Assembly (NCBI GenBank): GCA_051656585.1
Contig: JBOGCE010000009.1
Location: 49,020 to 113,019, forward strand
Length of the DNA: 64,000 bases
From: Sarcina sp.
GTDB taxonomy: Bacteria; Bacillota; Clostridia; Clostridiales; Clostridiaceae
Reading direction: 5' to 3'
Of the stretch, positions 9,216 through 62,853 are shown piece by piece. How positions within the stretch are numbered: position 1 is the first letter of the stretch; each line of letters starts with the position of its first letter. A model generated the notes under the pieces. That model saw only the letters and a program-made list of their open reading frames with translations, was not told the origin of the DNA and did not search any database. Made by a program: the position numbers and the translations under genes.

Positions 9216-9252
9216 TAAATAAAATTGGAATTAATTTACAAAGGAGATCGTT

Positions 9253-9402
9253 ATGTTTTTAGATGTTGTTGAAAAAATATATTCATTTTTTTATAGCTTT
9301 TATTATGGCCTAAGCTTTTATTTTAGCATGGTTATATTTAGTATGAAAAAAATAATGAATTTGTATCTGATGGATTTAAAAACATATCTTACTCATAAAT
9401 AA
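9253..9402 (+). CDS. Putative Phe/Tyr-rich leader peptide of the aro operon (49 aa)
   Basis: AAGGAG RBS at 9241; MFLDVVEKIYSFFYSFYYGLSFYFSMVIFSMKKIMNLYLMDLKTYLTHK*; 10 of codons 10-24 are Phe or Tyr; below the ORF track cut-off. Confidence 0.6.
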   Translation: MFLDVVEKIYSFFYSFYYGLSFYFSMVIFSMKKIMNLYLMDLKTYLTHK

Positions 9403-9430
9403 TATTGGTAAATAAAGATTATTGTTTTAT

Positions 9431-9462
9431 AATAAGATTCATTAGTGAATCTTATTTTTTTT
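9431..9462 (+). terminator. Intrinsic terminator (putative attenuator) between the leader ORF and aroF
   Basis: aataagattca-ttag-tgaatcttatt (11-bp stem) followed by tttttt. Confidence 0.7.
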
Positions 9463-9568
9463 ATTGATTTTAATGTCAAATTGATTTCAAATCTTAACAA
9501 TAAATATATAATTGTCTGTTAGTATAGAAACTAGCGAAAAAAGGGTATTATAAAACAGGAGGGGCTAT

Positions 9569-43494: not shown

Positions 43495-43558
43495 AACAAA
43501 TTACTTCCTTTCCTGTTTACTCTAACCGAGTATATCAGAATTTTCAGAATTCTAAAAA

Positions 43559-43573
43559 TTATCATTTTGATAA
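43559..43573. promoter_or_regulatory. Putative enhancer (UAS) for the sigma-54 activator
   Basis: TTATCATTTTGATAA, the reverse complement of the TTATCAAAATGATAA seen at 50633 and 59866. Confidence 0.65.
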
Positions 43574-43750
43574 ATTGAGAAAAAAATATGATAATTTTTT
43601 CACAACGTAAAAATTTAGGAAATAAAGTTCTTTTAAATGCTTAAAAATTTAATACTAAAAAAAAATTAATAATATTAATTGTATGCAAAAAAGGCTGAAT
43701 TTTTATAAAAAATATATGAAAACCTTTTATTACCAATTTTTGTATTGTTT

Positions 43751-43765
43751 TGGCGAGAGAATTGC
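43751..43765 (+). promoter_or_regulatory. Sigma-54 (-24/-12) promoter of the molybdenum hydroxylase operon
   Basis: TGGCGAGAGAATTGC; GG and GC are separated by exactly 10 nt. Confidence 0.75.
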
Positions 43766-43830
43766 GTGGTAATATGGCATGGAATAAATTGAGGAAATTT
43801 ATTCCATTGGATGGAAAAGGAGGAGATATT

Positions 43831-44634
43831 ATGTTCACAGTAAAGGAGTATGCAAAGCCTAAATCTTTAGATGAAGCTTATGAATTATTACAAAAGAACA
43901 AAAAAAATACAATAATAGGTGGTCTTTTATGGCTTAGAATGAGTGATAGAATGATAAATACAGCAATTGATTTATCAGACCTAGAGTTGAATAAAATTGA
44001 GGAAACAGAAAATGAATTTGAAATAGGTGCAATGGTAACATTAAGAGATTTAGAAGTAAATGAAAAATTAAATGAAGAATTTAATAATGTTTTTAAGCAT
44101 GCTACTGAACATATAGTTGGAGTTCAATTTAGGAATTTAGCGACTGTTGGTGGAAGTATTTATTCAAGATTTGGATTTTCAGATATTTTAACAAGCTTTT
44201 TAGCTTTAGATAGTTATGTGGTATTACATAAGGCAGGTAAGATGTCTATGGTAGAGTTTGCTAAATCAGAGTATACAAAAGATATAGTAGAAAAAATTAT
44301 TATAAAGAAAGATAAATCAAGAATTTGTTATTTAACTCAAAGACTTTCAGAAACTGATATACCTTTACTTGCTTTAGCAGCTAGTAAATCAGAAACAGGA
44401 TGGAAAATTTCAGTTGGTGCAAGACCTCATAAGGCAAAACTTGCAACAGAAACAGCTAAAATTTTATCTAATAAGCCAGATTCTAAGGAGATAGAGGTTG
44501 CTGGTGAAAGTTTATTAAAAGAATTAGATTTTGGTTCTAATATGAGAGCTTCAAAAGAATATAGAGAAATAATTGTTAAGGTTCTACTTAGAAGAGCAAT
44601 AGAGACAGTTGAAGGAGGCTATTATGATAACTAA
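43831..44634 (+). CDS. Molybdenum hydroxylase FAD-binding subunit (YgfM/XdhB-like)
   Basis: PKSLDEA, IIGGLLWL, IGAMVTL, QFRNLATVGGS motifs. Confidence 0.9.
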   Translation: MFTVKEYAKPKSLDEAYELLQKNKKNTIIGGLLWLRMSDRMINTAIDLSDLELNKIEETENEFEIGAMVTLRDLEVNEKLNEEFNNVFKHATEHIVGVQFRNLATVGGSIYSRFGFSDILTSFLALDSYVVLHKAGKMSMVEFAKSEYTKDIVEKIIIKKDKSRICYLTQRLSETDIPLLALAASKSETGWKISVGARPHKAKLATETAKILSNKPDSKEIEVAGESLLKELDFGSNMRASKEYREIIVKVLLRRAIETVEGGYYDN

Positions 44635-45082
44635 AATGTGGATTAATGGAAGGTTATATAACGAAGAAATTGAGAATGATAAAGTTTTATTAGACTTTTT
44701 AAGAGAAAAAGGATATTTGAGTGTAAAAAGAGGGTGTAATACAACTAATTGTGGTTTATGTACAGTTTGGGCAGATGAAAAACCAATTTTATCATGTTCA
44801 AGACTTGCAGTTCAAATGGGTGGTAAACATATTACAACTCTTGAAGGTCTTCAAAAAGAAGCAAAAGAATTTGCAGAGTTTTTATCAGCAGAAGGAGCAG
44901 AACAATGTGGATTCTGTAGCCCTGGGTTTGTTATGAATGTTTTAGCTATGGTAAAAGAATTAAATAATCCTACAGAAGAAGAAATTAGGAGTTATTTAGC
45001 AGGGAATTTATGTAGATGTACAGGATATATGGGTCAACTTAGAGCAGTTAAGAAATTCTTAACACAAAAGGAGGCGCAGTAA
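44624..45082 (+). CDS. Molybdenum hydroxylase 2x[2Fe-2S] subunit (XdhC-like)
   Basis: GCNTTNCGLC, QCGFCSPG, NLCRCTGY motifs. Confidence 0.93.
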   Translation: MITKMWINGRLYNEEIENDKVLLDFLREKGYLSVKRGCNTTNCGLCTVWADEKPILSCSRLAVQMGGKHITTLEGLQKEAKEFAEFLSAEGAEQCGFCSPGFVMNVLAMVKELNNPTEEEIRSYLAGNLCRCTGYMGQLRAVKKFLTQKEAQ

Positions 45083-45084
45083 CA

Positions 45085-47370
45085 ATGAAAGTAGTAAATC
45101 AAAGTAAACCTAAAGTAGATTCAATTCCATTAATTACAGGTAAACCAGTATATACAAATGATTTAGTACCGGCAAATGCTCTTATAGTAAAAGTTTTAAG
45201 AGCAAAAGTTGCTCATGCTAACATAGTAGATATTAATACTACTATAGCTGAAAAAGTACCAGGAATTGAATGTATTTTAACTTATGAAGATGTTCCAAAA
45301 ACTAGATTTATGGTTGCAGGTCAATCATATCCAGAGCCAACTCCTTATGATAGATTAATTTTAGATAAGAAGGTTAGACATGTTGGACAAGCTGTTGCTA
45401 TAGTAGCAGGTATAGATGAAAAAGCAGTAAATAAAGCGCTTAAGCTTATAAAAATAAAGTATGATATATTACCAGCTATTTTAGATGCCAAAGATGCTAT
45501 TGATAATCCAACTATAATACATGATGAAGATGATTATTTTTCTAATTTCGATTTAGGACAAGATCCAAAAAGAAATATTTGTTCTAAAGGAGATATGAAA
45601 AAAGGTGATGTTGAAGAGGTATTTAAGAAATGTGATATTGTTTTAGAAGAAACTTATCATACAAAAGCTAATGCACAAGCAATGATGGAAACAATGAGAA
45701 CATATACTCATTATGACTGCTACGGAAGATTAGTTATAGTTAGTGCAACTCAAATTCCTTTTCATGTTAGAAGAATATTAGCTAGAGCGTTAGAAATTCC
45801 AAAATCAAAAATTAGAGTAATAAAACCTCGTATAGGTGGAGGCTTTGGAGCTAAACAAACAGTAGCATCTGAAATTTATCCAGCAATAGTTACTTTAAAG
45901 ACAGGAAAACCAGCTAAAATTTGTTATAGTAGAACTGATACTTTTGTTGATACAACAAGTAGACATGGTATGGATGTTACAGTTAAGTTAGGAGCAGATA
46001 AAGATGGTACTTTAAGAGCTATGAAAATTTATGCATTATCTAATACTGGTGCATATAGCGAGCATGGTTCAACAGTTGTAGGACTTGTTGGAGTAAAAGC
46101 TTTAGCTGTTTATAATAGACTAGAAGCTTATGATTTTAGTTATGATGTTGTCTATACAAATACAATGTCAGCAGGTGCTTTTAGAGGATATGGAGCAACA
46201 CAAGGATTTTTTGCAGTTGAATCAATAATCAATGAACTTGCAGCTAAAATTAGTATGGATCCAACAGTTATAAGAGAGAAAAATATTGTTAAGCAAGGTG
46301 AATATCTACCAGCTTATCATGGAGAAACTCTTAATAGCTGTCATTTAGATAAATGTCTTGCTAAGGCAAAAGAATTATTTAAATGGGATGAGAAATATCC
46401 AAGTAGAGATTTAGGCAATGGAAAGGTAAGAGCAGTTGGTGCTGCTGTAACAATGCAGGGATCAGGTATAGAACATTTAGATAAGGCTTCTGTTGAAATT
46501 AAACTTGGAGACGGTGGTTTTTATCAATTGATGCTTGGTTCATCTGATATGGGAACAGGTTCAGATACTATTTTTGCACAGATGGCAGCAGAATGTTTAA
46601 ATTGTTCTTTTGAAAATATCACTGTAAGTGGTGTTGATACTGATATGTCACCTTACGATAAAGGCTCATATGCTTCAAGTACAACTTATGTAACAGGTAT
46701 GGCAGTTATAAAAACTTGTGAAGAAATGAAAAAACGTATTTGTATAGAAGGATCAAAAGAATTAGAATTAAAACCAGAAGAAGTTGAATTTGATGGTGAA
46801 TTTATAAAAGCTATAGATAGTGATAAAAAAATATCACTAGAAGATTTAGCTGAAAGATTATTAGTTGGAGATAAACAAAGTATAGTTGTTTCAATTTCAC
46901 ATTCAAGCCCAGTTTCACCTCCACCGTTTATGGCAGGACTTGTTGAAATTGAACTAGATAAAGAAACAGGAAAGGTTTCAATTGTAGATTATGTTGCAGT
47001 AGTTGATTGTGGAACAGTAATTAACCCTGCACTTGCGAGAATACAAGCTGAGGGTGGTCTTGTTCAAGGTATAGGAATGGCTTTATTTGAAGATATTCAA
47101 TATAATGAGGTCGGTAGAATGATGAATGATACATTTATGCAATATAAAATTCCAACAAGACTTGATATGGGAAATATAAGAGTTGAATTTGATAGTAGTT
47201 ATGAACCAACAGGACCATTTGGTGCAAAATCAATTGGAGAAGTTGTTATTAATACTCCAGCTCCAGCCATAGCTAATGCTATATATAATGCTGTAGGAGT
47301 AAATATTAGAAGTTTACCAATGACAGCTGAAAAAGTATTAATGGCAAAGTATGAAAATATGAATAAATAA
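45085..47370 (+). CDS. Molybdenum hydroxylase molybdopterin-binding subunit (XdhD-like)
   Basis: RIGGGFGAK, GAFRGYG, SYAS, GAKSIGE motifs; the PEPTPYDR segment resembles E. coli XdhD (from memory). Confidence 0.92.
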   Translation: MKVVNQSKPKVDSIPLITGKPVYTNDLVPANALIVKVLRAKVAHANIVDINTTIAEKVPGIECILTYEDVPKTRFMVAGQSYPEPTPYDRLILDKKVRHVGQAVAIVAGIDEKAVNKALKLIKIKYDILPAILDAKDAIDNPTIIHDEDDYFSNFDLGQDPKRNICSKGDMKKGDVEEVFKKCDIVLEETYHTKANAQAMMETMRTYTHYDCYGRLVIVSATQIPFHVRRILARALEIPKSKIRVIKPRIGGGFGAKQTVASEIYPAIVTLKTGKPAKICYSRTDTFVDTTSRHGMDVTVKLGADKDGTLRAMKIYALSNTGAYSEHGSTVVGLVGVKALAVYNRLEAYDFSYDVVYTNTMSAGAFRGYGATQGFFAVESIINELAAKISMDPTVIREKNIVKQGEYLPAYHGETLNSCHLDKCLAKAKELFKWDEKYPSRDLGNGKVRAVGAAVTMQGSGIEHLDKASVEIKLGDGGFYQLMLGSSDMGTGSDTIFAQMAAECLNCSFENITVSGVDTDMSPYDKGSYASSTTYVTGMAVIKTCEEMKKRICIEGSKELELKPEEVEFDGEFIKAIDSDKKISLEDLAERLLVGDKQSIVVSISHSSPVSPPPFMAGLVEIELDKETGKVSIVDYVAVVDCGTVINPALARIQAEGGLVQGIGMALFEDIQYNEVGRMMNDTFMQYKIPTRLDMGNIRVEFDSSYEPTGPFGAKSIGEVVINTPAPAIANAIYNAVGVNIRSLPMTAEKVLMAKYENMNK

Positions 47371-47393
47371 ACTTATTTAGAGTTTAAAAAATA

Positions 47394-47443
47394 AAGAGCT
47401 GTTGCATTAGCAATTAAATTTTGCTAGTGACAGCTCTTTTTAT
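47394..47443 (+). terminator. Intrinsic terminator
   Basis: aaagagctgttgcattagca pairs with tgctagtgacagctcttt, followed by a T-run. Confidence 0.75.
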
Positions 47444-47824
47444 TTTAAAAAACTAGCTATCAGATAAAAAAATTATTGGTGAGAATATAGAGAGAGTTCT
47501 TTAGTTTTTTTGTTTATTAGAGATAAGGTAATCAAAATGTCTTTAGTTTAATATAAAGAAAATATAGAATTGTTATTTTATTTTAATATTTAATACTACA
47601 TTTCGTACATAATTGAATTTATGGAAAAAATTCGAAGTTCAAATTAAGATAAAAGATTTTTTGATAAATTGTTTTAAATATAGCAAATAAAAATTCTATT
47701 TATAGATAGTAATGGAATTTTATAGAATAATGTCTTAATTGAATTTATTAGAAATTTAGTATTAAAAGACTCTATAATATAAATGTTGTTATTAAAAGTT
47801 AAATGTGAAGGAGTTGTTGATTTT

Positions 47825-49564
47825 ATGAATGCAGATATAGAATTCTCTTTATTAAAACAAGTTCAACCATATGTTATAAAATATGCTAATGTTATATCAG
47901 AAGTTTTAAATGTTAACATTGAAATTGTTGATAGAAATTTAGTAAGAATTGCAGGTACAGGTGCTTATAGTTCAAAAATTGATGAATCTAGTGAAGGAAT
48001 GTCATATAAAAAAGTTTTAGAGTCAGGAATGTATAATGTGATTTTAGAACCTAGAGATGATGAGTGCTGTATTAATTGTAAACTTAGAAGTTCATGTAAA
48101 GAGTTTTTAGAATTAGCGACACCCATATTTTATGATGAGCAAATAATAGGAATTATAGGTCTTGTTTGTTCAAATCAAGAGCAAAAAGATATTATTTTAA
48201 AAAATGTTAAAGAAAATTTGAGATTTTTAGATAATATAGCAGAACTTATACAGTCTAAAATATATGAAGAATTTAGTATTAAAAATGAATCACAATTCTT
48301 GATGATAATTGATAAATTTATGAATAGCGTTGAAACTGGCGTAATAGTGTTAGACAATGAGAATAAAATACATAGTTTAAATGAAGTAGCATTAAAGCAA
48401 TTATTAATTAATGATTCTATTTATGGAAATAAACAAGATATAAAATCACAGGAATTTAATACTAGTGAATATAATGGATTTGAAATACCGATGAATCTTG
48501 GTAAATATAAAAGTATTTTTATTTTTAATACTAAAGAACTTAAAAAAGCTTATTTGTTAGATAGTCCAAGCTCTATGGAGAGAGTGGGAATTGATAGAAT
48601 TGTTGGAGAGTCAAAAGCAGTCAAGAGCATGAAAAATAAGGCTAAAAAAATAGCTAATTCCATATCTACAGTATTAATAACTGGTGAAAGTGGAACTGGT
48701 AAAGAGGTTTTAGCTAGAGCTATACATGAATCTAGTGATAGAAAAGATAAACCATTTATAGCAATAAACTGTGCAGCGATACCTGAAAGCTTATTAGAAA
48801 GTGAACTTTTAGGATATGCAAAAGGTGCATTTAGTGGTGCTAATCCACAGGGTAAAATGGGAAAATTTGAACTTGCAAATCATGGTGTTATTTTTCTTGA
48901 CGAAATAGGAGATATGCCTCTTAATTTACAAGCAAAAATTTTAAGGGTTATACAAGAAAGACAATGTATTAGAATTGGGTCTAATAAACTTATAGATTTA
49001 GATATAAGAATAATAGCAGCTACTAATAAGAATTTAAAAAAATTAGTAGAAGAGAAGAAATTTAGAGAAGATTTATATTATAGATTAAATGTAATTCCGA
49101 TAAAAAGTCCACCTCTAAGAGAGCGTGAAGGCGATATAGAGTATCTAGTAAAAGCATTAGTTGAAAAGTATAATAAGATACTACACACTAATAAAAAAGA
49201 TATAACTTTAGATGCTTTAGAAAAGATGAAGAATTATAATTGGCCAGGAAATGTAAGAGAACTTGAAAATTGTATAGAATATATGCTTAATATTTCTATG
49301 GATTCAGAGATAATAGACGTAGATTCTTTACCAGATGACGTAGTTGGATATGAGACTACAAAAATGAATAATAATTTATTAAATATAGAAGATGAACTTA
49401 CTTTAGAGGATTTAGAAAAAAAATATATAATGCTTATGGTTGATAAATATGGATGTGATCTTAAAGCTAAAAAAATAATATCAGATAAATTAGGTATAGG
49501 GATAGCAACCCTATATAGAAAAATGGAAAAACAAAAAATAATAAGTAAAGAAACACACTGCTAA
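47825..49564 (+). CDS. Sigma-54-dependent transcriptional activator (YgeV-like; GAF/PAS, AAA+, Fis HTH)
   Basis: GESGTGKE, GAFSGA, FLDEIGDM, NWPGNVRELEN, LGIGIATLYRK. Confidence 0.93.
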   Translation: MNADIEFSLLKQVQPYVIKYANVISEVLNVNIEIVDRNLVRIAGTGAYSSKIDESSEGMSYKKVLESGMYNVILEPRDDECCINCKLRSSCKEFLELATPIFYDEQIIGIIGLVCSNQEQKDIILKNVKENLRFLDNIAELIQSKIYEEFSIKNESQFLMIIDKFMNSVETGVIVLDNENKIHSLNEVALKQLLINDSIYGNKQDIKSQEFNTSEYNGFEIPMNLGKYKSIFIFNTKELKKAYLLDSPSSMERVGIDRIVGESKAVKSMKNKAKKIANSISTVLITGESGTGKEVLARAIHESSDRKDKPFIAINCAAIPESLLESELLGYAKGAFSGANPQGKMGKFELANHGVIFLDEIGDMPLNLQAKILRVIQERQCIRIGSNKLIDLDIRIIAATNKNLKKLVEEKKFREDLYYRLNVIPIKSPPLREREGDIEYLVKALVEKYNKILHTNKKDITLDALEKMKNYNWPGNVRELENCIEYMLNISMDSEIIDVDSLPDDVVGYETTKMNNNLLNIEDELTLEDLEKKYIMLMVDKYGCDLKAKKIISDKLGIGIATLYRKMEKQKIISKETHC

Positions 49565-49726
49565 CAATTAGCAGTGTGTTTCTTTATTAACTGAATTTTA
49601 AAGTAATATTGTTTATCTATATAAAATATTTTTATGATTACAAATTACAGTTTAGTAGAAAAGTTAGTATTTTTTAGATAAGAGAAATATAGTATTAAAA
49701 GATCAATTGTATTTTTATAGAATTTA

Positions 49727-49754
49727 TTGACATAAAAAGGCAAAAATGTATAAT
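49727..49754 (+). promoter_or_regulatory. Consensus SigA promoter
   Basis: TTGACA, 16 bp, TATAAT. Confidence 0.75.
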
Positions 49755-49785
49755 TAAGGTGATATGATTTCGAAGGGGAATAATT

Positions 49786-50305
49786 ATGTTAAAAAAAATT
49801 TTTTATTGTAAGTCTAATTTTTATAGGAATTGTATTTGGTGGGAGTCAAAAAGTATTTGCAACTGAATTGGTTGAAGAAAAAGCAGAAAAAATATTATAT
49901 TCTGCACATTTATATGATTTTAATGGAAATTATATAAATAAGTGGCTTAATACAACTAAAAATGGAGCATTTAATGCTATAGATCCAAAATACAAAGGAA
50001 CTGTTAATAAGACTAATCTTTCAGGTTACGGAACTGTTGAGGGAATTGCATTAGAGGGTGTTAGAATTGATTTTACACAAGATCGTTATGTTTTGAGTTA
50101 TGATGGTGGATATAAAAATCCTAATTTTGTAAAAGTAGTTCAAAAAATATTATATAAAAGAGGACATAATATTGGTTCAACAGGAGCAGATGGGGTTTTT
50201 GGCTATAGAACAGAGCAGGCTGTTATAGCTTTCCAGAAAGCAAATGGGTTGAGTGCAGATGGAATAGTTGGAAAAAGAACATACTATAGTCTAGCAACTA
50301 TCTGA
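49786..50305 (+). pseudogene. Secreted peptidoglycan-binding-domain protein with a +1 frameshift in the signal-peptide homopolymer
   Basis: ATG 49786 with AAGGGG RBS stops at 49866 as sequenced; removing one base from A8T6 (49791-49804) gives MLKKFFIVSLIFIGIVFGGSQKVFA in frame with ORF 49868-50305, which ends in DGVFG..T..AV.AFQKANGLSADGIVG. Confidence 0.75.
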
Positions 50306-50632
50306 TTAAATTGTTTTTAGTTCTTTTCATATTTGGCATTTTTATTTGTAGTGTAAGTATAATTCCATGTAATAATGTAGTTAATAAAATAGAGATGTTT
50401 AAATAAATATATTTTTTGAAAATAAACAGTACTAACATGCTTTATGTTGGTGTTGTTTTTATTTGTAGTATATTTAAATGAAAATTTTACAATTCAAGAG
50501 TTTTGATAGTTTTTTTAGAATTTCATTTTCTTTTTTTAGGTAGTGATTAAATTATAGTTGTGAAATTTATATCAAAAAATTATAAAAATGTTATTTATAT
50601 GATAAAGTGGCATTAATACTAGTGTTTAGAGG

Positions 50633-50666
50633 TTATCAAAATGATAATAAGCTATCAAAATGATAA
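50633..50666. promoter_or_regulatory. Tandem putative enhancer sites (UAS)
   Basis: TTATCAAAATGATAA (50633-50647) and CTATCAAAATGATAA (50652-50666). Confidence 0.7.
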
Positions 50667-50757
50667 AATTTTAGCTGAGGAAGTTAGTTGTTTATTCATA
50701 AATTACATTATTTATACATAACTATAAGTTTTTTTCGCTTTTTTCTAAGTGAGGAGT

Positions 50758-50772
50758 TGGCATGTATATTGC
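50758..50772 (+). promoter_or_regulatory. Sigma-54 (-24/-12) promoter of the dpaL operon
   Basis: TGGCATGTATATTGC. Confidence 0.85.
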
Positions 50773-50827
50773 TAATTATATAAGTGTCAGTTGGATAAAC
50801 GATTATTGTAGAAGGAGAGATAGGATT

Positions 50828-52042
50828 ATGGAAAAAATTCAATGGAAAGCTAACACTATGAAACCTGGTGATAAAGAAGCTTCTATTTCTTTTTTAAGTA
50901 AAAAAGAGGTTAGTAAAGCTAGAAGATTTCACGAAAGTATAGATGGATACAAAGAAACACCTTTAGTTAAGTTAGATAACTTAGCAAAACATATAGGGAT
51001 TAAAGGATTATATGTTAAAGATGAATCATATAGATTTGGATTAAATGCTTTTAAAGTTCTTGGAGGATCATATTCAATGGGTAGATACCTTGCTATGAAA
51101 CTTGGAAAAGAAAATGAAGAAGTTTTATATCCAGAAATAGTATCAAAAGAAACAAAAGTAAAACTAGGTGATGTTACTTTCTATACAGCTACAGATGGTA
51201 ACCATGGAAGAGGAGTTGCTTGGACTGCAAATAAATTAAATCAAAAATCAGTAGTTTTAATGCCAAAAGGTTCTTCACTTACAAGACTTAATAACATTAA
51301 AGCAGAAGGTGCTGATGCTTCAATCACTGACTTAAATTATGATGATGCAGTAAGATTAGCAGCTAAACAAGCTGACGAAAACAATGGAGTAATGGTTCAA
51401 GATACAGCATGGGAAGGATATGTAGATATTCCAACTCATATTATGCAAGGTTACGGAACAATGGCTTTAGAAGCTATGGACCAACTTGAAGGATATGGAG
51501 TAAAAAGACCAACTCACATATTTATACAAGCAGGAGTAGGTTCATTAGCAGGTGCTGTTCAGGGAGTATTTGCTAGTGAATTTGAGGAGTGTCCTATAAC
51601 AACAGTTGTAGAGGCAAATTTAGCTGATTGTTATTATAAATCAGCAGTAGCAAATGATGGAAAAGCAAGATTTGTTGGAGGAGATATGCAAACAGTAATG
51701 GCTGGACTTGCATGTGGAGAGCCAAATATTATAGGATTTGAAGTTCTTAAAAATTATGCTAAGTGCTTTATATCTGCACCTGACTGGGTATCAACAAAAG
51801 GAATGAGAATACTTGGAGCACCTGTAAAAGGTGATAATCAAGTTATATCAGGAGAATCAGGAGCTGTTACAACAGGGGTTGTTTTTGAAATAATGACAAA
51901 TCCTGCACTTGCTGATTTAAGAAAAGAGTTAAAACTTGATGAAAACTCAGAAGTACTTGTATTTAGTACAGAAGGAGATACAGACCCAGAGAAATATAAA
52001 GAGATAGTTTGGAACGGATTAATAACAGAGTACGATAAATAA
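50828..52042 (+). CDS. dpaL: Diaminopropionate ammonia-lyase (YgeX)
   Basis: KDESYRFGLNAFKVLG, ATDGNHGRG, VQDTAW, QAGVG, MAGLACGEP, SGESGA. Confidence 0.95.
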   Translation: MEKIQWKANTMKPGDKEASISFLSKKEVSKARRFHESIDGYKETPLVKLDNLAKHIGIKGLYVKDESYRFGLNAFKVLGGSYSMGRYLAMKLGKENEEVLYPEIVSKETKVKLGDVTFYTATDGNHGRGVAWTANKLNQKSVVLMPKGSSLTRLNNIKAEGADASITDLNYDDAVRLAAKQADENNGVMVQDTAWEGYVDIPTHIMQGYGTMALEAMDQLEGYGVKRPTHIFIQAGVGSLAGAVQGVFASEFEECPITTVVEANLADCYYKSAVANDGKARFVGGDMQTVMAGLACGEPNIIGFEVLKNYAKCFISAPDWVSTKGMRILGAPVKGDNQVISGESGAVTTGVVFEIMTNPALADLRKELKLDENSEVLVFSTEGDTDPEKYKEIVWNGLITEYDK

Positions 52043-52104
52043 TTTTAATTTAAACGAATTTTAAAAATGTAATTTTAGAATAAGATTTTTGGAGGCGGAA
52101 AGTT

Positions 52105-53292
52105 ATGTTAAATCAAAAAAGAAAAGATGAAGTAGTAGATATTTGTAGAGAATTAATTAGTCATTATAGTCTTTCAGGTCAAGAAGATGGTGTTGTTAAG
52201 TCAATGAAAGCTAGATTTGAAAAAATGGGATTTGATGATGTTCAAGTAGATAAATATGGTAATGTAATAGGACATATCAAAGGAAATAAACCAGGTAAAA
52301 AAATATTATTAGATGGTCATATTGATGTAGTACCAGTTCCTGATAAAACAAAATGGTCACATGATCCATTTGCTGGAGAAATAGTAGATGGAAAAATATA
52401 TGGAAGAGGAACATCTGATATGAAAGGTCAAGTAAGTGCTATGCTTGCAGCTGCAGCTTACTTTGCTGAAGACACAAAAAAAGATTTCGCTGGAGATATA
52501 TATGTAGCTGGTGTTTGTGAAGAAGAATTATTTGAAGGTGTAACAGCTAGAGAAATTAGTAAAAATATCAAACCTGACTATGTTGTAATCGGTGAAAGTT
52601 CAGAATTAAACTTAAAAATTGGACAAAGAGGTAGAGCAGAAGTTGTTGTTGAAACATATGGTAGACCAGCTCACTCAGCTAACCCAGAAAAAGGAATAAA
52701 TGCTGTTTATAAAATGTCTAAATTCATAGAAAGAATACAAGAAATTCAACCTGTAGTTCATCCAGAATTAGGAAAAGGAATACTTGTTTTAACAGATATT
52801 AAATCATCACCATATCCAGGTGCTTCAGTAGTTCCAGATTATTGTAAAGCAACTTTTGATAGAAGACTTGTAGTTGGAGAAACTCCAGAATCAGTTCTTG
52901 CACCAGTTCAAAAAATTGCTGAAGAATTAATGGCTGCTGATCCAGAAATGAAAATTAAAGTTTCATACTCACATGGTAAAGAAACTTGTTATACAGGAGA
53001 AACTGTAGAAGCTGAAAGATTCTTCCCAGCTTGGTTATACAATAAAGATGATGAGTTTGTACAACTTGCATTAAAAGGACTTAAATCAGCAGGAATAGAT
53101 CCAGAAATAACAGTTTACTCATTCTGTACAAATGGTTCACATTACGCAGGAGAAGCTGGAATTCAAACAATAGGATTTGGTCCATCAAGAGAAAACTTAG
53201 CTCACACAATAGATGAACATATAGAAGTAGCTCAATTACAAAAAGGTGTAGAAGGATATTACGGTATCTTAAAATCAGTTTATAACAAATAA
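52105..53292 (+). CDS. ygeY: YgeY family M20 hydrolase
   Basis: DGHID, GRGTSDMKG, EEL, GRPAHS, FCTNGSH, HTIDE motifs; directly follows dpaL. Confidence 0.88.
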   Translation: MLNQKRKDEVVDICRELISHYSLSGQEDGVVKSMKARFEKMGFDDVQVDKYGNVIGHIKGNKPGKKILLDGHIDVVPVPDKTKWSHDPFAGEIVDGKIYGRGTSDMKGQVSAMLAAAAYFAEDTKKDFAGDIYVAGVCEEELFEGVTAREISKNIKPDYVVIGESSELNLKIGQRGRAEVVVETYGRPAHSANPEKGINAVYKMSKFIERIQEIQPVVHPELGKGILVLTDIKSSPYPGASVVPDYCKATFDRRLVVGETPESVLAPVQKIAEELMAADPEMKIKVSYSHGKETCYTGETVEAERFFPAWLYNKDDEFVQLALKGLKSAGIDPEITVYSFCTNGSHYAGEAGIQTIGFGPSRENLAHTIDEHIEVAQLQKGVEGYYGILKSVYNK

Positions 53293-53309
53293 TTAGGAGA
53301 TGAATTTAT

Positions 53310-54896
53310 ATGAAAACATTAATCAAGCATGGATTAATAGTGGATGGTCTTTTAAATAAGCCATATAAATCAGAGCTTCTAATTGAAGATGGTAAAATAG
53401 CAAAAATTACCGAACTAATAGAAGATGAAGTTGATGAAATTATTGATGCTAAGGGCAGAGTTGTCTGCCCAGGCTTCATCGATACACATAGTCACTCAGA
53501 TTTAATGATGCTAGTAAATCCTTATAATGAAATTAAAATTAGACAAGGAATTACAACTGAAGTTTTAGGTCAAGATGGTATATCTATGGCTCCACTTCCA
53601 AAAGAATTTATAAGTCCTTGGAGAAAGAATATTGCTGGTCTAGATGGTGAAACAGATGATATAGATTGGGAATATGAAACAACAGATAATTATTTAAGTA
53701 TGATGGAAAAAGGTGGAGTAAGTATTAACGAAAGTTACTTAGTTCCACATGGAAATGTAAGAATGGAAGCTATGGGACTAGTTGATGAACCTGCTACTGA
53801 CGAACAAATCCAAAAAATGTGTGAAATTACTGAAAGAGAAATGTTAGCAGGAGCTTATGGTTTATCAAGTGGATTAATATATATTCCATGTGCATATTCA
53901 AAAACACAAGAATTAATAGAAATGTGTAAAGTAGTAGCTAAATATGATGGTGTATTCGTTGTTCACCAAAGAAGTGAAGCTGATACTATTGTAAGTTCTA
54001 TGGAAGAAATATTAAGAATAGGAAGAGAGTCTGGCGTTAAAATACATTTTTCACACTTTAAAGTTTGTGGAAAACAAAACTGGAAATACATTCCTGATAT
54101 GGAGAGATTACTTGATGAAGGTGAAAAACAAGGTCTTAAAATAAGTTATGACCAATATCCATATGCAGCAGGAAGCACAATGCTAGGTGTTATTCTTCCA
54201 CCATGGGCACATGATGGTGGAACAGACAAGTTAATGGAAAGATTAGCTGATGAAGAGTGTAGACGCAGAATGAAGGAAGATATGGCCAACGGTATACCAG
54301 GTTGGGATAATTTCGTTCAATTTGCAGGAATAGATCAAATATTAGTTACTAGTGTTAGAACAGAAAAAAATCAAGATGTTATAGGTAAAAGTCTTGAAGA
54401 GATAGGAAAAATGAGAGGAAAAGATCCTCTAGATGCAACATTTGATTTATTACATGATGAAGAAAATGCAGTAGGAATGGTTGATTTCTACGGATTAGAA
54501 GAACATGTAATTAAATTCTTATCAAGACCAGAACAAAATGTTTGTACAGATGGTCTTCTTGCTGGGAAACCACATCCAAGAGCTTATGGTTCATTCCCAA
54601 GAGTACTTGGAAGATATGTTAGAGAACAAAAAGTTCTTACTCTTGAGCAAGCTATTCATAAAATGACTAAAAAAGCAGCAGACGCTATGGCTATCAAAGA
54701 TAGAGGTAGCCTAGAAATTGGAAAAGCAGCAGATATAGTTATTTTTAATCAGGATACTGTAATAGACAAAGGTACATTTGTAGATTCAACACAATATCCT
54801 GAAGGAATAGATTTTGTTATGGTAAATGGTCAATTAGTACTTGAAGAGGGTGAATGTAGAAAAATTACACCAGGTAAAGTGCTAAGAAGAAAATAA
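53310..54896 (+). CDS. N-acyl-D-amino-acid deacylase-like amidohydrolase
   Basis: PGFIDTHSHSD, GQDGIS, HQRSE, DQYPY.AGST, HPRAYGSFPRVLG. Confidence 0.88.
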   Translation: MKTLIKHGLIVDGLLNKPYKSELLIEDGKIAKITELIEDEVDEIIDAKGRVVCPGFIDTHSHSDLMMLVNPYNEIKIRQGITTEVLGQDGISMAPLPKEFISPWRKNIAGLDGETDDIDWEYETTDNYLSMMEKGGVSINESYLVPHGNVRMEAMGLVDEPATDEQIQKMCEITEREMLAGAYGLSSGLIYIPCAYSKTQELIEMCKVVAKYDGVFVVHQRSEADTIVSSMEEILRIGRESGVKIHFSHFKVCGKQNWKYIPDMERLLDEGEKQGLKISYDQYPYAAGSTMLGVILPPWAHDGGTDKLMERLADEECRRRMKEDMANGIPGWDNFVQFAGIDQILVTSVRTEKNQDVIGKSLEEIGKMRGKDPLDATFDLLHDEENAVGMVDFYGLEEHVIKFLSRPEQNVCTDGLLAGKPHPRAYGSFPRVLGRYVREQKVLTLEQAIHKMTKKAADAMAIKDRGSLEIGKAADIVIFNQDTVIDKGTFVDSTQYPEGIDFVMVNGQLVLEEGECRKITPGKVLRRK

Positions 54897-54971
54897 TCAC
54901 AGTTATAGTTAGTTTGTTAATTTTTTAAAAATTAAAATATATATTCGTTGTAAAAATAGGAGGTACCAGTT

Positions 54972-56063
54972 ATGGCAAATTTAAAAGTTAATATATTAGG
55001 AATGGAATTTAGAAATCCAGTTATGACAGCAGCAGGTCCAGGAGCTAAAGATGCAGATTTAATTCTTAAAGCTGTAGAACTTGGTGTTGGAGGAATTTGT
55101 ACAAAAACAGTTTCAGAAAAAGCAGCAGATGTACCAAGACCATGTATGGCAAAAACAAATAGTGGTTTCTTAAACACTGAGTTATGGTCAGAGTTAACAG
55201 TTGAGCATTGGGTTAAAAATGAGTATCCAAGAATTAAGGCAGCTGGACTTCCAGTTATAGTTAGTATGGGATACACAGCAGATCAGATTGCTAAAGTTGC
55301 ACCACTTGTTAAACCTTATGCAGATGCAGTTGAACTTTCAACTCACTATGTTGGTACAGATGTACAACCTATCGTTGATGCTATGAAAGCAGCTAAAGCA
55401 GCTTTAGATTGTCCAGTATTTATGAAAATGAGTCCACATACAGATATTCACGTTATCGCTAAAGCTTTAGAAGATGCTGGTGCAGATGGACTTGTTATGA
55501 TTAACTCATTTGGACCTTGTATGGCAATTGATACTGAAACAGGACTTCCAATAATGGGTAGTAAAACAGGATATGGTTGGTTATCAGGTTCACCAATAAG
55601 ACCTCTTGCTATAAGAAACATATATGATGCTTCAAGAGCTATTAAAATTCCAATAATAGGTGTTGGAGGAGTTACTTGTGGTAGAGATGCAGCAGAAATG
55701 ATGATGGCTGGAGCTTCAGCAGTACAAGTTTGTACAGAAGCTATCTTAAAAGGACCAGGAATTTATAAAAAAATTGCTGATGAGTTAAATGAATTCTTAG
55801 ATTCACATGGATATAAAGATGTAAATGAAATTGTAGGTTTAGCTCATAAAATGGATTCACAAAGAACATTTAAAACAGAAAAAAGAGAAATACCTACAAT
55901 AGATCATGATAAATGTATTAAATGTAAAATTTGTATAACAAGTTGCGTATATGATGCAATTTCAATAACAGATAAATTAGAAATAGATGCAGATAAATGT
56001 TTCGAATGTGGTTTATGTGTTACAAGATGCCCAAAAAGCGCTTTAGAGCTTCCTTACAAATAG
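54972..56063 (+). CDS. DHODH/dihydropyrimidine-dehydrogenase-fold FMN protein with C-terminal 2x[4Fe-4S] ferredoxin domain
   Basis: AAGP, KTV, KMSP, INS, GWLSG, IIGVGG, AGASAVQ; CIKCKICITSC and CFECGLCVTRCP. Confidence 0.85.
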   Translation: MANLKVNILGMEFRNPVMTAAGPGAKDADLILKAVELGVGGICTKTVSEKAADVPRPCMAKTNSGFLNTELWSELTVEHWVKNEYPRIKAAGLPVIVSMGYTADQIAKVAPLVKPYADAVELSTHYVGTDVQPIVDAMKAAKAALDCPVFMKMSPHTDIHVIAKALEDAGADGLVMINSFGPCMAIDTETGLPIMGSKTGYGWLSGSPIRPLAIRNIYDASRAIKIPIIGVGGVTCGRDAAEMMMAGASAVQVCTEAILKGPGIYKKIADELNEFLDSHGYKDVNEIVGLAHKMDSQRTFKTEKREIPTIDHDKCIKCKICITSCVYDAISITDKLEIDADKCFECGLCVTRCPKSALELPYK

Positions 56064-56169
56064 GATGTTTTATATAAAATAAAAAATGATAGTAACGTTC
56101 TTTAAAAGCAAGCTTATAGCTTCCTTTTAAAGAATGTTTATTATAAATATTTCAATGGAGGAATTCGTA

Positions 56170-56553
56170 ATGAAAGATATAATAAATACAACAAAGGCAC
56201 CTGGAGCTATAGGACCTTATTCACAAGCTACAGGAGTAGGAAGATTAGTTTTCGTATCAGGACAACTTCCTATAGATATGGCTACTGGTGAATTAGTTAA
56301 CGAAATTAAAGGAGCAACTAAAGCATCATTAGATAATGTTAAAGCTATCTTAGAAGAAGCTGGAACATCAATGGATAATGTTTTAAAAACAACAGTTCTT
56401 TTAAAAGATATTAACGATTTTGCAGCAGTAAATGAAGTTTATGGACAATACTTTACTAAAGACTGTCCAGCAAGAGCTTGTTTCGCAGTAGGAAAACTTC
56501 CTAAAGATGCGTTAGTAGAAATCGAAGTTATTGCTTGTAGAGAAAAACACTAA
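56170..56553 (+). CDS. ridA: RidA family enamine/imine deaminase
   Basis: [32 protein letters not shown]. Confidence 0.93.
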
Positions 56554-56620
56554 TTTTTATTTGAAATTAGACTTATTTTTAGATTACTTTTAACCTTATA
56601 ATTGTTAATCTTTTTATATG

Positions 56621-56934
56621 AAGGGAGGGACATACATTAGCCCTTTCTTGAAAGGGATACAACTAGTGTATGGGTGCACGTATGTGTGGTTTAGAAGAAA
56701 TTAAATTTAGTAGATATGGTAATTTTCTAATCTACCAGCATTTTTATCTGCAATTGCTGTAGTTGAAAAATAGCTGAAGATTAGGAAAGTTAATATCGAT
56801 TTCGGTATTGTGATTTAAAATTATTAAATTTTTAAATCAATATCATAGTTACTAAATAAAAGATACAATTTAAAGTTTTAAATCAAATACTGATTGAAGT
56901 ATATAAATGACTTTCCTAAAAATAATTTTAGGAG
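56621..56934 (+). ncRNA. Candidate structured cis-regulatory leader of the PnuC-like gene
   Basis: Mutually exclusive pairings 56723-56733/56779-56789, 56781-56790/56910-56919 and 56914-56921/56926-56933 (the last occludes the SD). Confidence 0.45.
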
Positions 56935-56943
56935 ATGGAATTT

Positions 56944-57771
56944 ATGTTTAATTGGTTTAAAAAATTTACACCGTTTCAAAAATGGTTTTTTTGTGTATTT
57001 TTAGTTGGAGCAATTGTGTCACTTTTTCTTCCGTTGGCAACGGGAGCTTCATGGGCAACTGTATTTGAATTTACAGCTGTGTTAGGAATATTATCTACAA
57101 TATCAGGAATATTAAACTCTATATATGTTTGTAGAGCAGAAATTATTTTATATTTTTGGTGGGGAGCAAACACAGTGTTTTTTGGAATACAATGTATACC
57201 AGAACATTTATATTCAACTTTTTTCTTAAATATAGTTATAGTTTTACCAATAATAGTTTGGGGATACTATAAATGGCGTAAAGATATTAAGAAAGCTCAA
57301 GAAATTGGAGAAATGAAAGAAGATGACACAGTACAAATAAGAAAATTTAATGCAAAACAATGGGTTTTAGCAGCTGTTATTTTTATAGTAGCATGGGCTG
57401 CTTATTGCGTATTCGCAATATACTTCCCAGATATTGTAGCTCTATTTGGAATAAAAATCCCTATGGATGCTAACTTTATTTTAGATTCTCTTATTGCAGT
57501 AGGAACAGCTTATGCAGTAATATTAACAGGTACTCGTAATGTAGAAAACTGGTATTTCTGGTTTATTGTTAACATTGTAGGTATAGGTTTATTCTTAGAT
57601 CAACTTATAAAATCAATAGTTGCTGGTAATATGAGTATCATGCAATTAGGTGGTGTAATTATGTATGTTCAATACTTAGTATCTAATATATATGGATATT
57701 GGTGTTGGCTTAATCTTAGAAAGAAACAAAAAGGCAAAGGTAAACAAGGCGATAAACAAGTTGCAGCTTAA
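56944..57771 (+). CDS. PnuC-family (nicotinamide riboside transporter-like) membrane transporter
   Basis: Trp-rich TM segments; LY...L, GYYKW, LDSL and ENWYFW motifs; ATG 56944 fits the AGGAG spacing. Confidence 0.8.
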   Translation: MFNWFKKFTPFQKWFFCVFLVGAIVSLFLPLATGASWATVFEFTAVLGILSTISGILNSIYVCRAEIILYFWWGANTVFFGIQCIPEHLYSTFFLNIVIVLPIIVWGYYKWRKDIKKAQEIGEMKEDDTVQIRKFNAKQWVLAAVIFIVAWAAYCVFAIYFPDIVALFGIKIPMDANFILDSLIAVGTAYAVILTGTRNVENWYFWFIVNIVGIGLFLDQLIKSIVAGNMSIMQLGGVIMYVQYLVSNIYGYWCWLNLRKKQKGKGKQGDKQVAA

Positions 57772-57778
57772 TAAAAAT

Positions 57779-57810
57779 TCTATAGTGTAATTTTAAAATT
57801 ACACTATAGA
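57779..57810. terminator. Perfect 32-bp palindrome after the PnuC-like gene (probable terminator)
   Basis: tctatagtgtaattttaaaattacactataga. Confidence 0.65.
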
Positions 57811-58061
57811 ATTAAAGATAACAATAAAAAAATAAGTTTTAATTTTATAAATTTTCATTTTAATTCTAAAATTTATAGCAAAGGGAGGGACTTGTCTTTG
57901 AGAATGTTCCGATCCTAAACCGCGTAATCTTTATTTGTTTTAGAAACAACTTATAGTTTTGAAATCATTTCTTGAAGTTATACAAGTAAATTATTAAAAT
58001 CTAAGTTTCTCATTTTTAAAAATAACGGTTTACCATCAGGAGTTGAAGACAGGGGTGCTAA

Positions 58062-58361
58062 ATGAGTGGTTTACATGAATTTGGAACAATAATAAATGCT
58101 ATAGGAGGAATTCTATTAGCATATGGATATTTACCACATATCTATGATCTTATCAAAACTAAGAAAAAAGGCTCTAACAGCTTACAATACTGGGTTATTA
58201 TGACCTTTGGTATTTTCTGTATATCTATAAATATGTTTATTCAAGGAATACCGTTAGTTCAACAAATTACACAAATATTTAACGTTGGATTAGCATTTAT
58301 TTCAACAGTAGTATTAATTTACTATATTGCAAAAGAGAAAAGAACTTTAGCGAATAAATAA
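58062..58361 (+). CDS. PQ-loop/SemiSWEET-like half-size transporter
   Basis: Three TM segments; YLPHIYDLIKTK...SLQYW. Confidence 0.8.
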   Translation: MSGLHEFGTIINAIGGILLAYGYLPHIYDLIKTKKKGSNSLQYWVIMTFGIFCISINMFIQGIPLVQQITQIFNVGLAFISTVVLIYYIAKEKRTLANK

Positions 58362-58391
58362 TATTTACTTAGATAGAAGGAGTTGAATATA

Positions 58392-58682
58392 ATGGGATTA
58401 GATACAATAGGTAATATCGCACAGTTTTTGGGAAGTGCAGTATTAGTTTATTCATACTTTCCACAAATATATAAATTGTTTAAAAGTAAAAATGCTAGTG
58501 GGATGAATCTTCAATTTTGGACTATACTTACTATAGGGTTAACTTGCATAGCAATAAACTTAAGTATTGTAGGTGTTCAATGGTTCATACAATTTACTCA
58601 ATGGTTTAACGTAATATTAGCATTTATTGTTTTAGTATTAAGTATTAAATATAAAGGCATGGCTAAAAGAGCTGCCAATTAA
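58392..58682 (+). CDS. PQ-loop/SemiSWEET-like half-size transporter (paralog)
   Basis: Three TM segments; YFPQIYKLFKSKNASGMNLQFW; ATG 58392 follows AAGGAG. Confidence 0.85.
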   Translation: MGLDTIGNIAQFLGSAVLVYSYFPQIYKLFKSKNASGMNLQFWTILTIGLTCIAINLSIVGVQWFIQFTQWFNVILAFIVLVLSIKYKGMAKRAAN

Positions 58683-58804
58683 TTTATAAATAAACTAGAT
58701 GAATTTAAATAAAATATTGATTTTATTTAATTAAAACATATAAAGTTTATTAATATTTATATGTTTTAAGATAAGAGGCATATTTAACCTCGTTATCTGT
58801 AAGG

Positions 58805-58850
58805 AAAAAATACTCAAACCTTAAGTTTTCTTAGGTTCGAGTATTTTTTC
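58805..58850. terminator. Intrinsic terminator after the PQ-loop pair
   Basis: aaaaaatactcaaacc..aag pairs with ctt..ggttcgagtatttttt. Confidence 0.7.
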
Positions 58851-58941
58851 TATAAAATAAGAGTAAATTAGATGAAATTTAAATTGATAGTTTTGGATGA
58901 TTTATGCCTTAGTTAAAAAGTCAAACAGGGAGATGAATGTT

Positions 58942-59754
58942 ATGCAAAGATTTGATAGAAAATTAGTAATAGTAAGAGGCGGAGGAGATATAGCTACAGG
59001 GGTTATACAAAAATTAAAACGTGCTGGATTTAATGTAGTTGTATTAGAAAGCTCTAAACCTAGTAGTATTCGAAGAAATGTTTGTCTAAGTGAAGCTATT
59101 TATAATGGTGAAGCTAAGGTAGAAGATATTAAAGCTATAAGGGTTAATGATATTAATCATGTGAATGATGTATTAAATCATGGTGATATAGCTATGTTAG
59201 TAGATGAAACAGGTGAATGTATTAAATATCTTAGAGGTATAGCAGTTATTGATGCTATATTAGCTAAAAAAAATATAGGTACTAATAGGGCTATGGCACC
59301 AATTACCATAGGACTAGGACCAGGATTTGAAGCAGGAGAAGATGTTGATATTGTTGTTGAAACAATGAGAGGGCATAATCTTGGAAGACTTATTTTCAAT
59401 GGTTTTGCTAAAGAAAATACAGGAGTTCCTGGTGCTATAGCAGGAGTTGCTGAAGATAGAGTAATTTATAGTGAAGCAGATGGGATTTTCAAAGGTATTA
59501 AGAAAATTGGAGATATTGTAAAAGCAGGTGAAGTTATAGCAACAGTTAGTGGATATGACGTTAAATCTAAAATTGATGGAGTCTTAAGAGGTCTTATAAG
59601 AGATGATTTTGAGGTTACTAAGGGATTTAAGATTGCTGACGTAGATCCAAGACTTGCAGAAAAAGAAAATTGTGATACTATATCAGATAAGGCTAGAGCT
59701 GTTGGTGGAGCTACATTAGAAGCTCTTATGATAATGTTAGAAAAATTAAAATAA
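58942..59754 (+). CDS. yqeB: Selenium-dependent molybdenum hydroxylase accessory protein (YqeB/EF2563 family)
   Basis: VRGGGDIATG, IDAILAK, LGPGF, ETMRGH.LG, GVLRGL, DVDPR, SDKARAVGG. Confidence 0.92.
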   Translation: MQRFDRKLVIVRGGGDIATGVIQKLKRAGFNVVVLESSKPSSIRRNVCLSEAIYNGEAKVEDIKAIRVNDINHVNDVLNHGDIAMLVDETGECIKYLRGIAVIDAILAKKNIGTNRAMAPITIGLGPGFEAGEDVDIVVETMRGHNLGRLIFNGFAKENTGVPGAIAGVAEDRVIYSEADGIFKGIKKIGDIVKAGEVIATVSGYDVKSKIDGVLRGLIRDDFEVTKGFKIADVDPRLAEKENCDTISDKARAVGGATLEALMIMLEKLK

Positions 59755-59860
59755 AATTGAATTATATGTAAGAAGTTTGAGTTTAATAAGAATAATTTAG
59801 CTTATCAATCTGATAAGCTGTTATAAAACTTCTTAAAACATTAAAAAAACAAGGTTTGAA

Positions 59861-59900
59861 GGGTATTATCAAAATGATAATACCCTTTTCATATTGATAA
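59861..59900. promoter_or_regulatory. Tandem putative enhancer sites (UAS)
   Basis: GGGTATTATCAAAATGATAATACCC (59861-59885) and TTTTCATATTGATAA (59886-59900); a further TTATCAATCTGATAA at 59802-59816. Confidence 0.7.
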
Positions 59901-59979
59901 ACACTTGTAAATTTTTACTTAAAATACTATGAGATGTGCAAAAAATGTGACAACTTTTATAGTTTTTAAAGATTTTAGT

Positions 59980-59994
59980 TGGCATATTAATTGC
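59980..59994 (+). promoter_or_regulatory. Sigma-54 (-24/-12) promoter of the ssnA operon
   Basis: TGGCATATTAATTGC. Confidence 0.85.
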
Positions 59995-60095
59995 TAGTAA
60001 TATAAAAAGATAGAAATAGTTATGTTGTTAAGAAAACGTATTACATAGAACTATTATCAATAATATAAGGAAGTTAAGCTATAGGAGGTTTTAAG

Positions 60096-61424: not shown

Positions 61425-61452
61425 TCAATAATTGAAACTAGGAGTGATTTCA

Positions 61453-62850: not shown

Positions 62851-62853
62851 AGA

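Follow-up and report, generated by a model that had tools for sequence, protein, structure and literature searches.

The 64,000-nucleotide stretch of Sarcina sp. DNA analyzed here, hereinafter the window, carries a predicted locus of uric acid degradation, in which three operons are preceded by sigma-54-type promoters and by copies of the palindrome TTATCA-N3-TGATAA. The locus also encodes a sigma-54-dependent enhancer-binding protein (EBP), a homologue of the clostridial DioR and of YgeV of Escherichia coli. With a probability of about 85%, this DioR/YgeV-type EBP is predicted to bind the palindrome, which would make the latter its upstream activating sequence (UAS). The motif had been taken for the activator site already in a preliminary description of the window, and this assignment is supported computationally by the homology of the regulator, by the nature of the target genes and by the ranking of the motif in ten loci.

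Organization of the Locus

The host is a Sarcina/Clostridium-like bacterium, which has been seen in fish-gut metagenomes and is represented by metagenomic contigs only; two metatranscriptomes contain 7-11% of the words sampled. The genes are arranged in the order xdhBCA-EBP-dpaL-ygeY-uacY-uacX-ridA...yqeB-ssnA-hyuA-xdhD, all on the plus strand. The first operon (43831..47370) encodes an xdh-type molybdenum hydroxylase (Pfam FAD_binding_5, Fer2_2 and MoCoBD_1/2) with FAD (43831-44634), 2Fe-2S (44609-45082) and Mo (45085-47370) subunits; its best NCBIfam match is XdhA, below the cut-off of that family. The dpaL operon (50828..56553) comprises dpaL/ygeX (50828-52042), ygeY (52105-53292), the genes of a UacY-type D-aminoacylase-like amidohydrolase (53310-54896) and of a UacX-type DHO_dh+Fer4 reductase with 2x[4Fe-4S] (54972-56063), both named after PMC12507026, and ridA (56134-56553). 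In this operon TIGR03528 and NF009555 scored above their cut-offs, and the other genes were assigned by Pfam. Farther downstream lies yqeB (58897..59754), encoding the selenium-dependent molybdenum cofactor maturation protein (TIGR03309, 354 bits vs. a cut-off of 220). It is followed by the ssnA operon (60096..64000; NF005540 and TIGR02033 above cut-offs), which consists of ssnA (60096-61424), the gene of a hyuA-type D-hydantoinase (61432-62850) and that of an XdhD-like fused 2Fe-2S/Mo hydroxylase, which starts at 62854, continues past the window end and was recognized in the translation of 62851-64000. The NCBIfam equivalogs above cut-off are thus DpaL, YgeY, SsnA, D-hydantoinase and YqeB.

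According to the cluster and pathway definitions of Li et al. (2025; PMC12507026), the reductive uric acid set includes SsnA, XdhD, UacX (PF01180), HyuA, UacY (PF07969), YgeY and YgeX, and all seven are encoded between 50828 and the window end. By these definitions, the predicted products make up the complete reductive uric acid pathway in its C. difficile-type variant, with UacX in place of YgfK and UacY in place of YgeW/YqeA.

Sigma-54 Promoters and the Upstream Palindrome

A scan with the Clostridiales promoter consensus TTGGCAT-N5-TTGCT found two perfect matches in the whole window, TTGGCATGTATATTGCT at 50757..50773 and TTGGCATATTAATTGCT at 59979..59995, both on the plus strand and correctly oriented, 55-100 bp before dpaL and ssnA. 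The xdh operon is preceded by a weak sigma-54-type promoter, TTGGCGAGAGAATTGCG (43750..43766, plus strand), with correct GG-N10-GC spacing and three mismatches to the consensus. Of the three correctly spaced -24/-12 elements listed in the preliminary description, all retain their spacing and two are perfect, but the one given there at 43751 turned out to be much weaker than the others.

Exact copies of TTATCA-N3-TGATAA start at four positions of the 64-kb window (43559, 50633, 59802 and 59866), compared with 0.02 expected from dinucleotide-preserving shuffles; none of 100 shuffles reached four. Two more copies deviate at a single position (50652, CTATCA..., and 59886, TTTTCA...), and the remaining one-mismatch match in the window, at 26691, is isolated, the chance expectation for this class being 1.19. 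All six copies at the promoters (at most one mismatch) are situated 94-192 bp upstream of the three GG-N10-GC elements.

The sites, to which no strand is assigned, are grouped differently at each promoter. The xdh operon has one copy with exact palindromic half-sites (43559..43573, TTATCATTTTGATAA), followed 21 bp later by a right half-site alone (43580..43594, TGATAA at 43589-43594). A tandem pair precedes dpaL (50633..50666), with an exact copy at 50633-50647 and a one-mismatch copy at 50652-50666, 19 bp apart. Upstream of ssnA there are three copies (59802..59900), of which 59802-59816 and 59866-59880 are exact and 59886-59900 has one mismatch; the successive spacings are 64 and 20 bp. One and the same 15-mer, TTATCAAAATGATAA, is found at 50633 and at 59866, and it is the reverse complement of the copy at 43559. 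The copies, the occurrence of this 15-mer or its reverse complement at all three promoters and the tandem spacing of 19-20 bp had all been described before and were found again here.

Two of these sites have further features in their vicinity. Around the distal ssnA site the symmetry extends over 21 bp, giving the perfect palindrome AGCTTATCAATCTGATAAGCT (59799-59819), which is located 45 bp 3' of the yqeB stop codon and was flagged on the minus strand by a terminator scan. The xdh site is directly adjoined by AATTTTCAGAATTCT (43539-43553), whose counterpart in a closely related locus (L001, see below) is AATTTTGAAAATTCT; it resembles, with three mismatches, the CodY box, which we take to be AATTTTCWGAAAATT.

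Conservation of the Motif in Related Loci

For comparison we used loci around EBP homologues of 48-71% identity, coming from Sarcina-like metagenome-assembled genomes, the C. botulinum group, C. thailandense, Tissierella and a Peptostreptococcaceae isolate. A contig search with the single EBP sequence yielded two relevant loci, L001 and L002, the other eight being generic AAA+ matches; further loci were gathered via homologous proteins and the contigs encoding them. In an unprimed enumeration, all 5- and 6-mer palindromes with gaps of 0-8 were counted between -300 and -40 of 14 sigma-54 promoter matches (at most one mismatch) from 10 loci. The top palindrome was TTATC-N5-GATAA, present in 12 of the 14 regions; TTATCA-N3-TGATAA was present in 10, compared with four for the best unrelated palindrome. 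Motif discovery, proposed earlier as a check, thus places this family first upstream of the sigma-54 promoters of ten loci.

The location of the copies points in the same direction. In 243 kb of loci there are 23 exact copies, all of them in promoter regions: 19 precede a sigma-54-like promoter by 100-300 bp and one by 357 bp, two lie at the end of a locus that breaks off before the ssnA promoter, and one stands before an EBP gene. A frequent occurrence away from sigma-54 promoters, which had been named as an argument against the activator site, was therefore not observed in these 243 kb. The matrix built from 35 sites with at most one mismatch is sharp and has the consensus wwTTATCAwwwTGATAAww; 31 of these sites carry C5, and the same number carry G11. 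Their centres are 63-352 bp away from the promoter GG, on its upstream side, and successive sites are separated by either 17-21 bp (10 pairs) or 54-78 bp (9 pairs). Three sites were found at seven of 16 promoters, six of which show a distal site followed by a proximal pair, with a distal gap of 54-70 bp (56 bp in the sixth of them, on L011); at the dpaL promoter of L011 a gap of 78 bp is spanned by a two-mismatch copy.

The arrangements seen in the window recur in individual loci. The copy at 43559 is retained in the close relative L001, where the differences are confined to the spacer, and the combination of a full site and a half-site before xdh is also present in L002 (at 6160 and 6179). 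The same tandem pair at the same distances precedes dpaL in L012, and the three-site pattern of the ssnA region is repeated in L011, L016, L017 and L018.

These data leave a negligible probability that the copies arose as AT-rich palindromes by chance or were left over from the duplication of a promoter cassette. The former idea can appeal to the very AT-rich genome and to the 22 two-mismatch variants in the window; given 28.7% G+C, such variants are common, and information is carried only by copies with at most one mismatch. It is exactly these copies that exceed the shuffled expectation, and between loci with EBPs 48-71% identical their half-sites are kept while spacers and flanks have diverged. 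As for a duplicated cassette, it was ruled out, since the three promoter regions of the window have no longer repeat in common. Shuffles, enumeration, localization and the repeat search together refute both explanations.

One of the loci, L015, shows a different neighborhood (8192-10001, 11760): a paralogue of the EBP, 57% identical, is encoded between a xanthine/uracil permease gene, which has the sigma-54-like promoter TTGGCGTAGCAATTGCT, and a pair of small membrane-protein genes described below. An exact copy of the motif lies just upstream of this EBP gene, at 9856, which hints at EBP autoregulation in some lineages, as published for dioR of C. difficile.

The Enhancer-Binding Protein

The EBP (579 aa; 47825..49564, plus strand) contains the Sigma54_activat domain (PF00158, E=1.4e-71), AAA_lid_14, a putative C-terminal helix-turn-helix (HTH) with the recognition helix LGIGIATLYRK, the loop GAFSGA and an N-terminal CxxCx5C motif. 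Previously characterized as YgeV-like, it proved to be a full-length YgeV/DioR homologue with the sigma-54 interaction domain: it is 48% identical to the C. botulinum/C. sporogenes protein P0077 (residues 8-575, 98% coverage) and 39% identical to E. coli YgeV over the full length. The loop GAFSGA, the same as in DioR of C. botulinum, is a variant accepted as functional by Nie et al. (PMC6615313). The recognition helix is found unchanged in 93 of the 120 best homologues; the window protein, the C. botulinum/C. sporogenes DioR and YgeV all share it. The cysteine motif (CINCKLRSSC, residues 82-91, window positions 48068-48097) recurs as CxxCx(4-6)C in the N-terminal part of all 120 best homologues and of YgeV, and may be a metal, Fe-S or redox sensing site.

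Probable Assignment of the Palindrome to the Activator

Several observations weigh against the assignment of the palindrome to the EBP, or narrow its range. The Pfam HTH_8 model remained below threshold on the window EBP, although its helix is identical to that of homologues with PF02954 matches. Within the locus, yqeB, a pnuC-like gene and two PQ-loop genes (the last three are described below) show no detectable site or sigma-54 promoter, which makes the boundaries of the regulon uncertain. Two more points, the likeness of the palindrome to a metalloregulator box and the weakness of the promoter at 43750, belong to alternative explanations and are considered with them.

The first alternative is that the palindrome is the operator of a Fur-family metalloregulator (Fur/PerR-like) or of another repressor encoded elsewhere. 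The boxes of this family, which we take to be TGATAAT-N-ATTATCA for Fur and TTATAAT-N-ATTATAA for PerR of Bacillus subtilis, are likewise 15-bp AT-rich palindromes; written as a 7-1-7 repeat, TTATCAw-w-wTGATAA shares 11 of 14 positions with the PerR box, and metal control would be plausible for a pathway with Fe-S, Mo and Se enzymes. However, the best matches in the three regions, by these presumed consensuses, still have 3-4 mismatches of 14 to the Fur box and 3 of 14 to the PerR box, so that the Fur/PerR alternative, which had been raised in advance, receives no support from the boxes. Moreover, the bases deviating from the PerR box are C5 and G11, and no other specific bases of the motif are so strongly conserved. 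In contrast to an operator overlapping a promoter, the sites form tandem arrays in an enhancer-like location 63-352 bp upstream of sigma-54 promoters, with no -35/-10 overlap, and the motif co-occurs with an EBP gene of invariant recognition helix across Bacillota and in E. coli. Control by a Fur-family or other repressor is therefore very improbable.

The second alternative accepts that the EBP binds the motif and supposes that only the dpaL and ssnA operons truly depend on sigma-54 and the EBP, with xdh transcribed mainly from another promoter and its single full site serving as a weak or auxiliary contact. The xdh region does offer grounds for this: the promoter at 43750 is weak by sequence, its level of three mismatches being reached at 13 other places of the window; there is one full site with a half-site, the most distant one, at 186 bp; and a sigma-70-like TTGATA-17-GATAAT (43567-43595) overlaps the site. 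Against it, the distance from the promoter to the xdh start codon downstream is 65 bp, the equivalent position in L001 is occupied by TTGGCGAGAAAATTGCT, with TTGGCGAG...TTGC conserved, and the orthologous xdh operons of L002 and L014 likewise follow a sigma-54-type promoter with the motif upstream of it. Position, conservation in L001 and these orthologous promoters make the 43750 element credible. Furthermore, E. coli xdhA carries GG-N10-GC together with the motif, and E. coli xdhABC was reported to be sigma-54 dependent (PMC10602906). Dependence of just two operons on the activator thus appears rather unlikely. Returning to the activator site at all three promoters, the urate/purine regulon of three operons suggested in the preliminary description is upheld as a prediction within this window, to which the count of three applies.

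Relation to the DioR Regulon and Other Known Systems

The regulon was not new. Sigma-54 regulons had been reconstructed in 57 Clostridiales by Nie, Dong and Yang (2019, BMC Genomics 20:565; PMC6615313), whose Table S3 lists 19-mers of DioR upstream of dpaL, ygeW-ygfK-ssnA-ygeY, yqeC-yqeB-xdhC and xdhABC; for C. botulinum, C. sporogenes and C. tetani the sites include ATTTATCAAAGTGATAAGT, ATTTATCATAATGATAAGG and TATTATCATTTTGATAATA, and C. difficile and C. ljungdahlii have a TTCTCA-N3-TGAGAA variant. The view that a published consensus was not known for the motif has therefore to be abandoned, as the DioR UAS of that paper already provides one. Four of the published strings (TTGGCATAAATATTGCTTA, ATTTATCAATAGGATAATT, TTGGCATATTTATTGCTTC and ATTTATCATTTTAATAATA) recur letter for letter in L011, the locus that encodes P0077, and the gene order there is the one published for DioR (yqeC-...-fepDCB, EBP, dpaL-pbuX-pyrC, ygeW-ygfK-ssnA). 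Since these strings stand in the locus of P0077, to which the window EBP is homologous, the window regulator is a homologue of the published DioR. The window is hence a new instance of a regulon predicted independently by computer in 2019, and the functional link has been voiced as well: DioR, whose function was given as 'unknown' by Nie et al., was called 'uncharacterized' in a 2024 study of C. difficile (PMC11448449), where its regulon suggested a role in purine and pyrimidine metabolism. We found no experimental test of DioR binding in the literature searched, and a 2025 survey of sigma-54 regulons (PMC12316311) does not mention purine genes.

The window and the published regulon agree in the EBP family (48% identity to the C. 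botulinum/C. sporogenes protein), in the 19-bp sites (such as those of Table S3 cited above), the promoter consensus and multiple sites per promoter, and in the targets dpaL, ssnA, ygeY, xdh and yqeB. They differ in the host, here a fish-gut bacterium, in the gene order, in that the promoter scan detected no sigma-54 promoter of its own for the window yqeB, and in that the pathway has been solved since the function of DioR was given as 'unknown'.

Other regulators resemble the system in part. UAS of the NtrC/NifA/FhlA type are inverted repeats occupied by HTH dimers 80-200 bp upstream of GG-N10-GC. The window shares with them the tandem inverted repeats about two turns apart upstream of GG-N10-GC (see also PMC6615313), whereas its motif is not TGT-N10-12-ACA, DioR being among the 'distinct' motif groups of Nie et al., and its regulator is a one-component protein with a Cys-rich N-terminal domain instead of a phosphorylated receiver. 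In physiological role the system resembles the PucR regulon. PucR of B. subtilis (cited in PMC12507026) co-induces xanthine dehydrogenase and urate-degrading genes, in an oxidative pathway. The co-induction of xanthine dehydrogenase and urate genes would be common to both systems, but PucR does not belong to the sigma-54 EBPs and has an unrelated box.

The YgeV Cluster of Escherichia coli

Outside the window, we examined positions 2996000-3040000 of E. coli K-12 (NC_000913.3). An exact copy of the motif, TTATCATAATGATAA, is located at 3015789 (L020:190-204), 174 bp upstream of TGGCAA-N5-GTGC before ygfK. The ygeV-ygeW and ygfT-uacT intergenic regions contain an identical 15-mer, ATATCAATATGAGAA, before ygeW and uacT, with TTATCAAACTGAAGA also before ygeW, and a two-mismatch copy, TTATCACATTGATTT, stands 133 bp before CTGGCGTAAATCTTGCC upstream of xdhA. 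The degenerate copies are at 3005941, 3005970, 3000102 (L019) and 3031159 (L021). Altogether, these 44 kb have eight matches with at most two mismatches, compared with 1.4 in shuffles; five of the eight fall into four intergenic regions, and the 'YgeV iModulon' consists of the operons of these regions. Before xdhA, ygeW, ygfK and uacT the distance from the copies to the -24/-12-like elements downstream of them is 133-214 bp.

The E. coli YgeV (IsrR) cluster, xdhA-ygeV-ygeW...ygfK-ssnA...uacT, is like the window in its enzyme set, in the recognition helix, in CxxCx5C and in the 39% identity of the regulators. It differs in that the ygfK site alone is exact, the others having two mismatches, in the poor -12 elements, and in the use of YgfK and YgeW/YqeA rather than UacX and UacY. 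According to Iwadate and Kato (2019, as quoted in a citing paper), E. coli needs ygeV to consume urate anaerobically; no YgeV operator was found in the literature searched, which was incomplete. The identical recognition helix, together with the E. coli copies, makes the motif a candidate YgeV operator. Judging from sequence comparison, we lean slightly towards the view that one operator serves the whole YgeV/DioR family across phyla and that these are the first candidate sites of E. coli YgeV.

Proposed Mechanism and Its Significance

We propose that dimers of the EBP bind the predicted UAS (wwTTATCAwwwTGATAAww) via the putative C-terminal Fis-type HTH, with two or three dimer sites per -24/-12 promoter at a distance of 60-350 bp on its upstream side. 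Of these sites, the proximal pair would be about two helical turns apart (17-21 bp) and the distal site 54-78 bp farther upstream, and together they would nucleate the AAA+ hexamer. The N-terminal domain would sense the signal, presumably urate, xanthine or a pathway intermediate, and the hexamer would loop to the sigma-54 RNA polymerase and open the promoter. As an outcome, xanthine dehydrogenase would be co-induced with XdhD, UacX, SsnA, HyuA, YgeY, UacY and YgeX. NtrC-type mechanisms are well established, and by analogy with them a three-site layout is what could be expected if three DNA-bound dimers template one AAA+ hexamer; should the operator indeed be shared by the whole family, the recurrent distal-plus-pair layout may reflect this arrangement. 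As an alternative mode of control, a riboswitch is not indicated, since an Rfam search of 40000-64000 matched no family.

The anaerobic breakdown of urate by gut bacteria currently attracts interest because of gout and hyperuricaemia. Its enzymes were worked out in 2023-2025; its control is still a matter of computational prediction. In this respect the window motif reveals no new kind of regulation; it adds one more, very clean, predicted instance of the DioR operator, combining the complete C. difficile-type pathway with xanthine dehydrogenase. The practical value is modest and consists in defined probes for a first binding test of the activator family, and the E. coli copies suggest that such a test is feasible in the most tractable host.

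Other Features of the Locus

A scan for sigma-70 promoters and terminators gave fewer promoter-like sites than shuffles and is thus uninformative on operon boundaries; it placed hairpins after the EBP gene, after an open reading frame (ORF) at 49868-50305 and after the pnuC-like gene. This ORF (145 aa), inserted between the EBP gene and dpaL, is preceded by a perfect sigma-70 promoter, TTGACA-16-TATAAT (49727-49754), and followed by the hairpin at 50424-50458. Judged by eye, its C-terminus resembles a peptidoglycan-binding repeat, and the ORF appears to be unrelated to the regulon.

The pnuC-like gene (56935-57771), coding for a PnuC-like nicotinamide-mononucleotide transporter, lies inside the locus with a strong hairpin after it (57776-57813), and is absent from the equivalent position in L012-L014. 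Two adjacent genes of membrane proteins of about 99 aa (58062-58361 and 58383-58682) gave weak PQ-loop matches on their orthologues. This pair is kept beside uricolytic genes in L012 (17841-18456), L013 (18118-18731), L014 (19960-20595) and L015 (11956-12583), in the last case directly after the EBP paralogue and a sigma-54-like promoter, and may represent a heterodimeric SemiSWEET-like transporter of the uric acid pathway.

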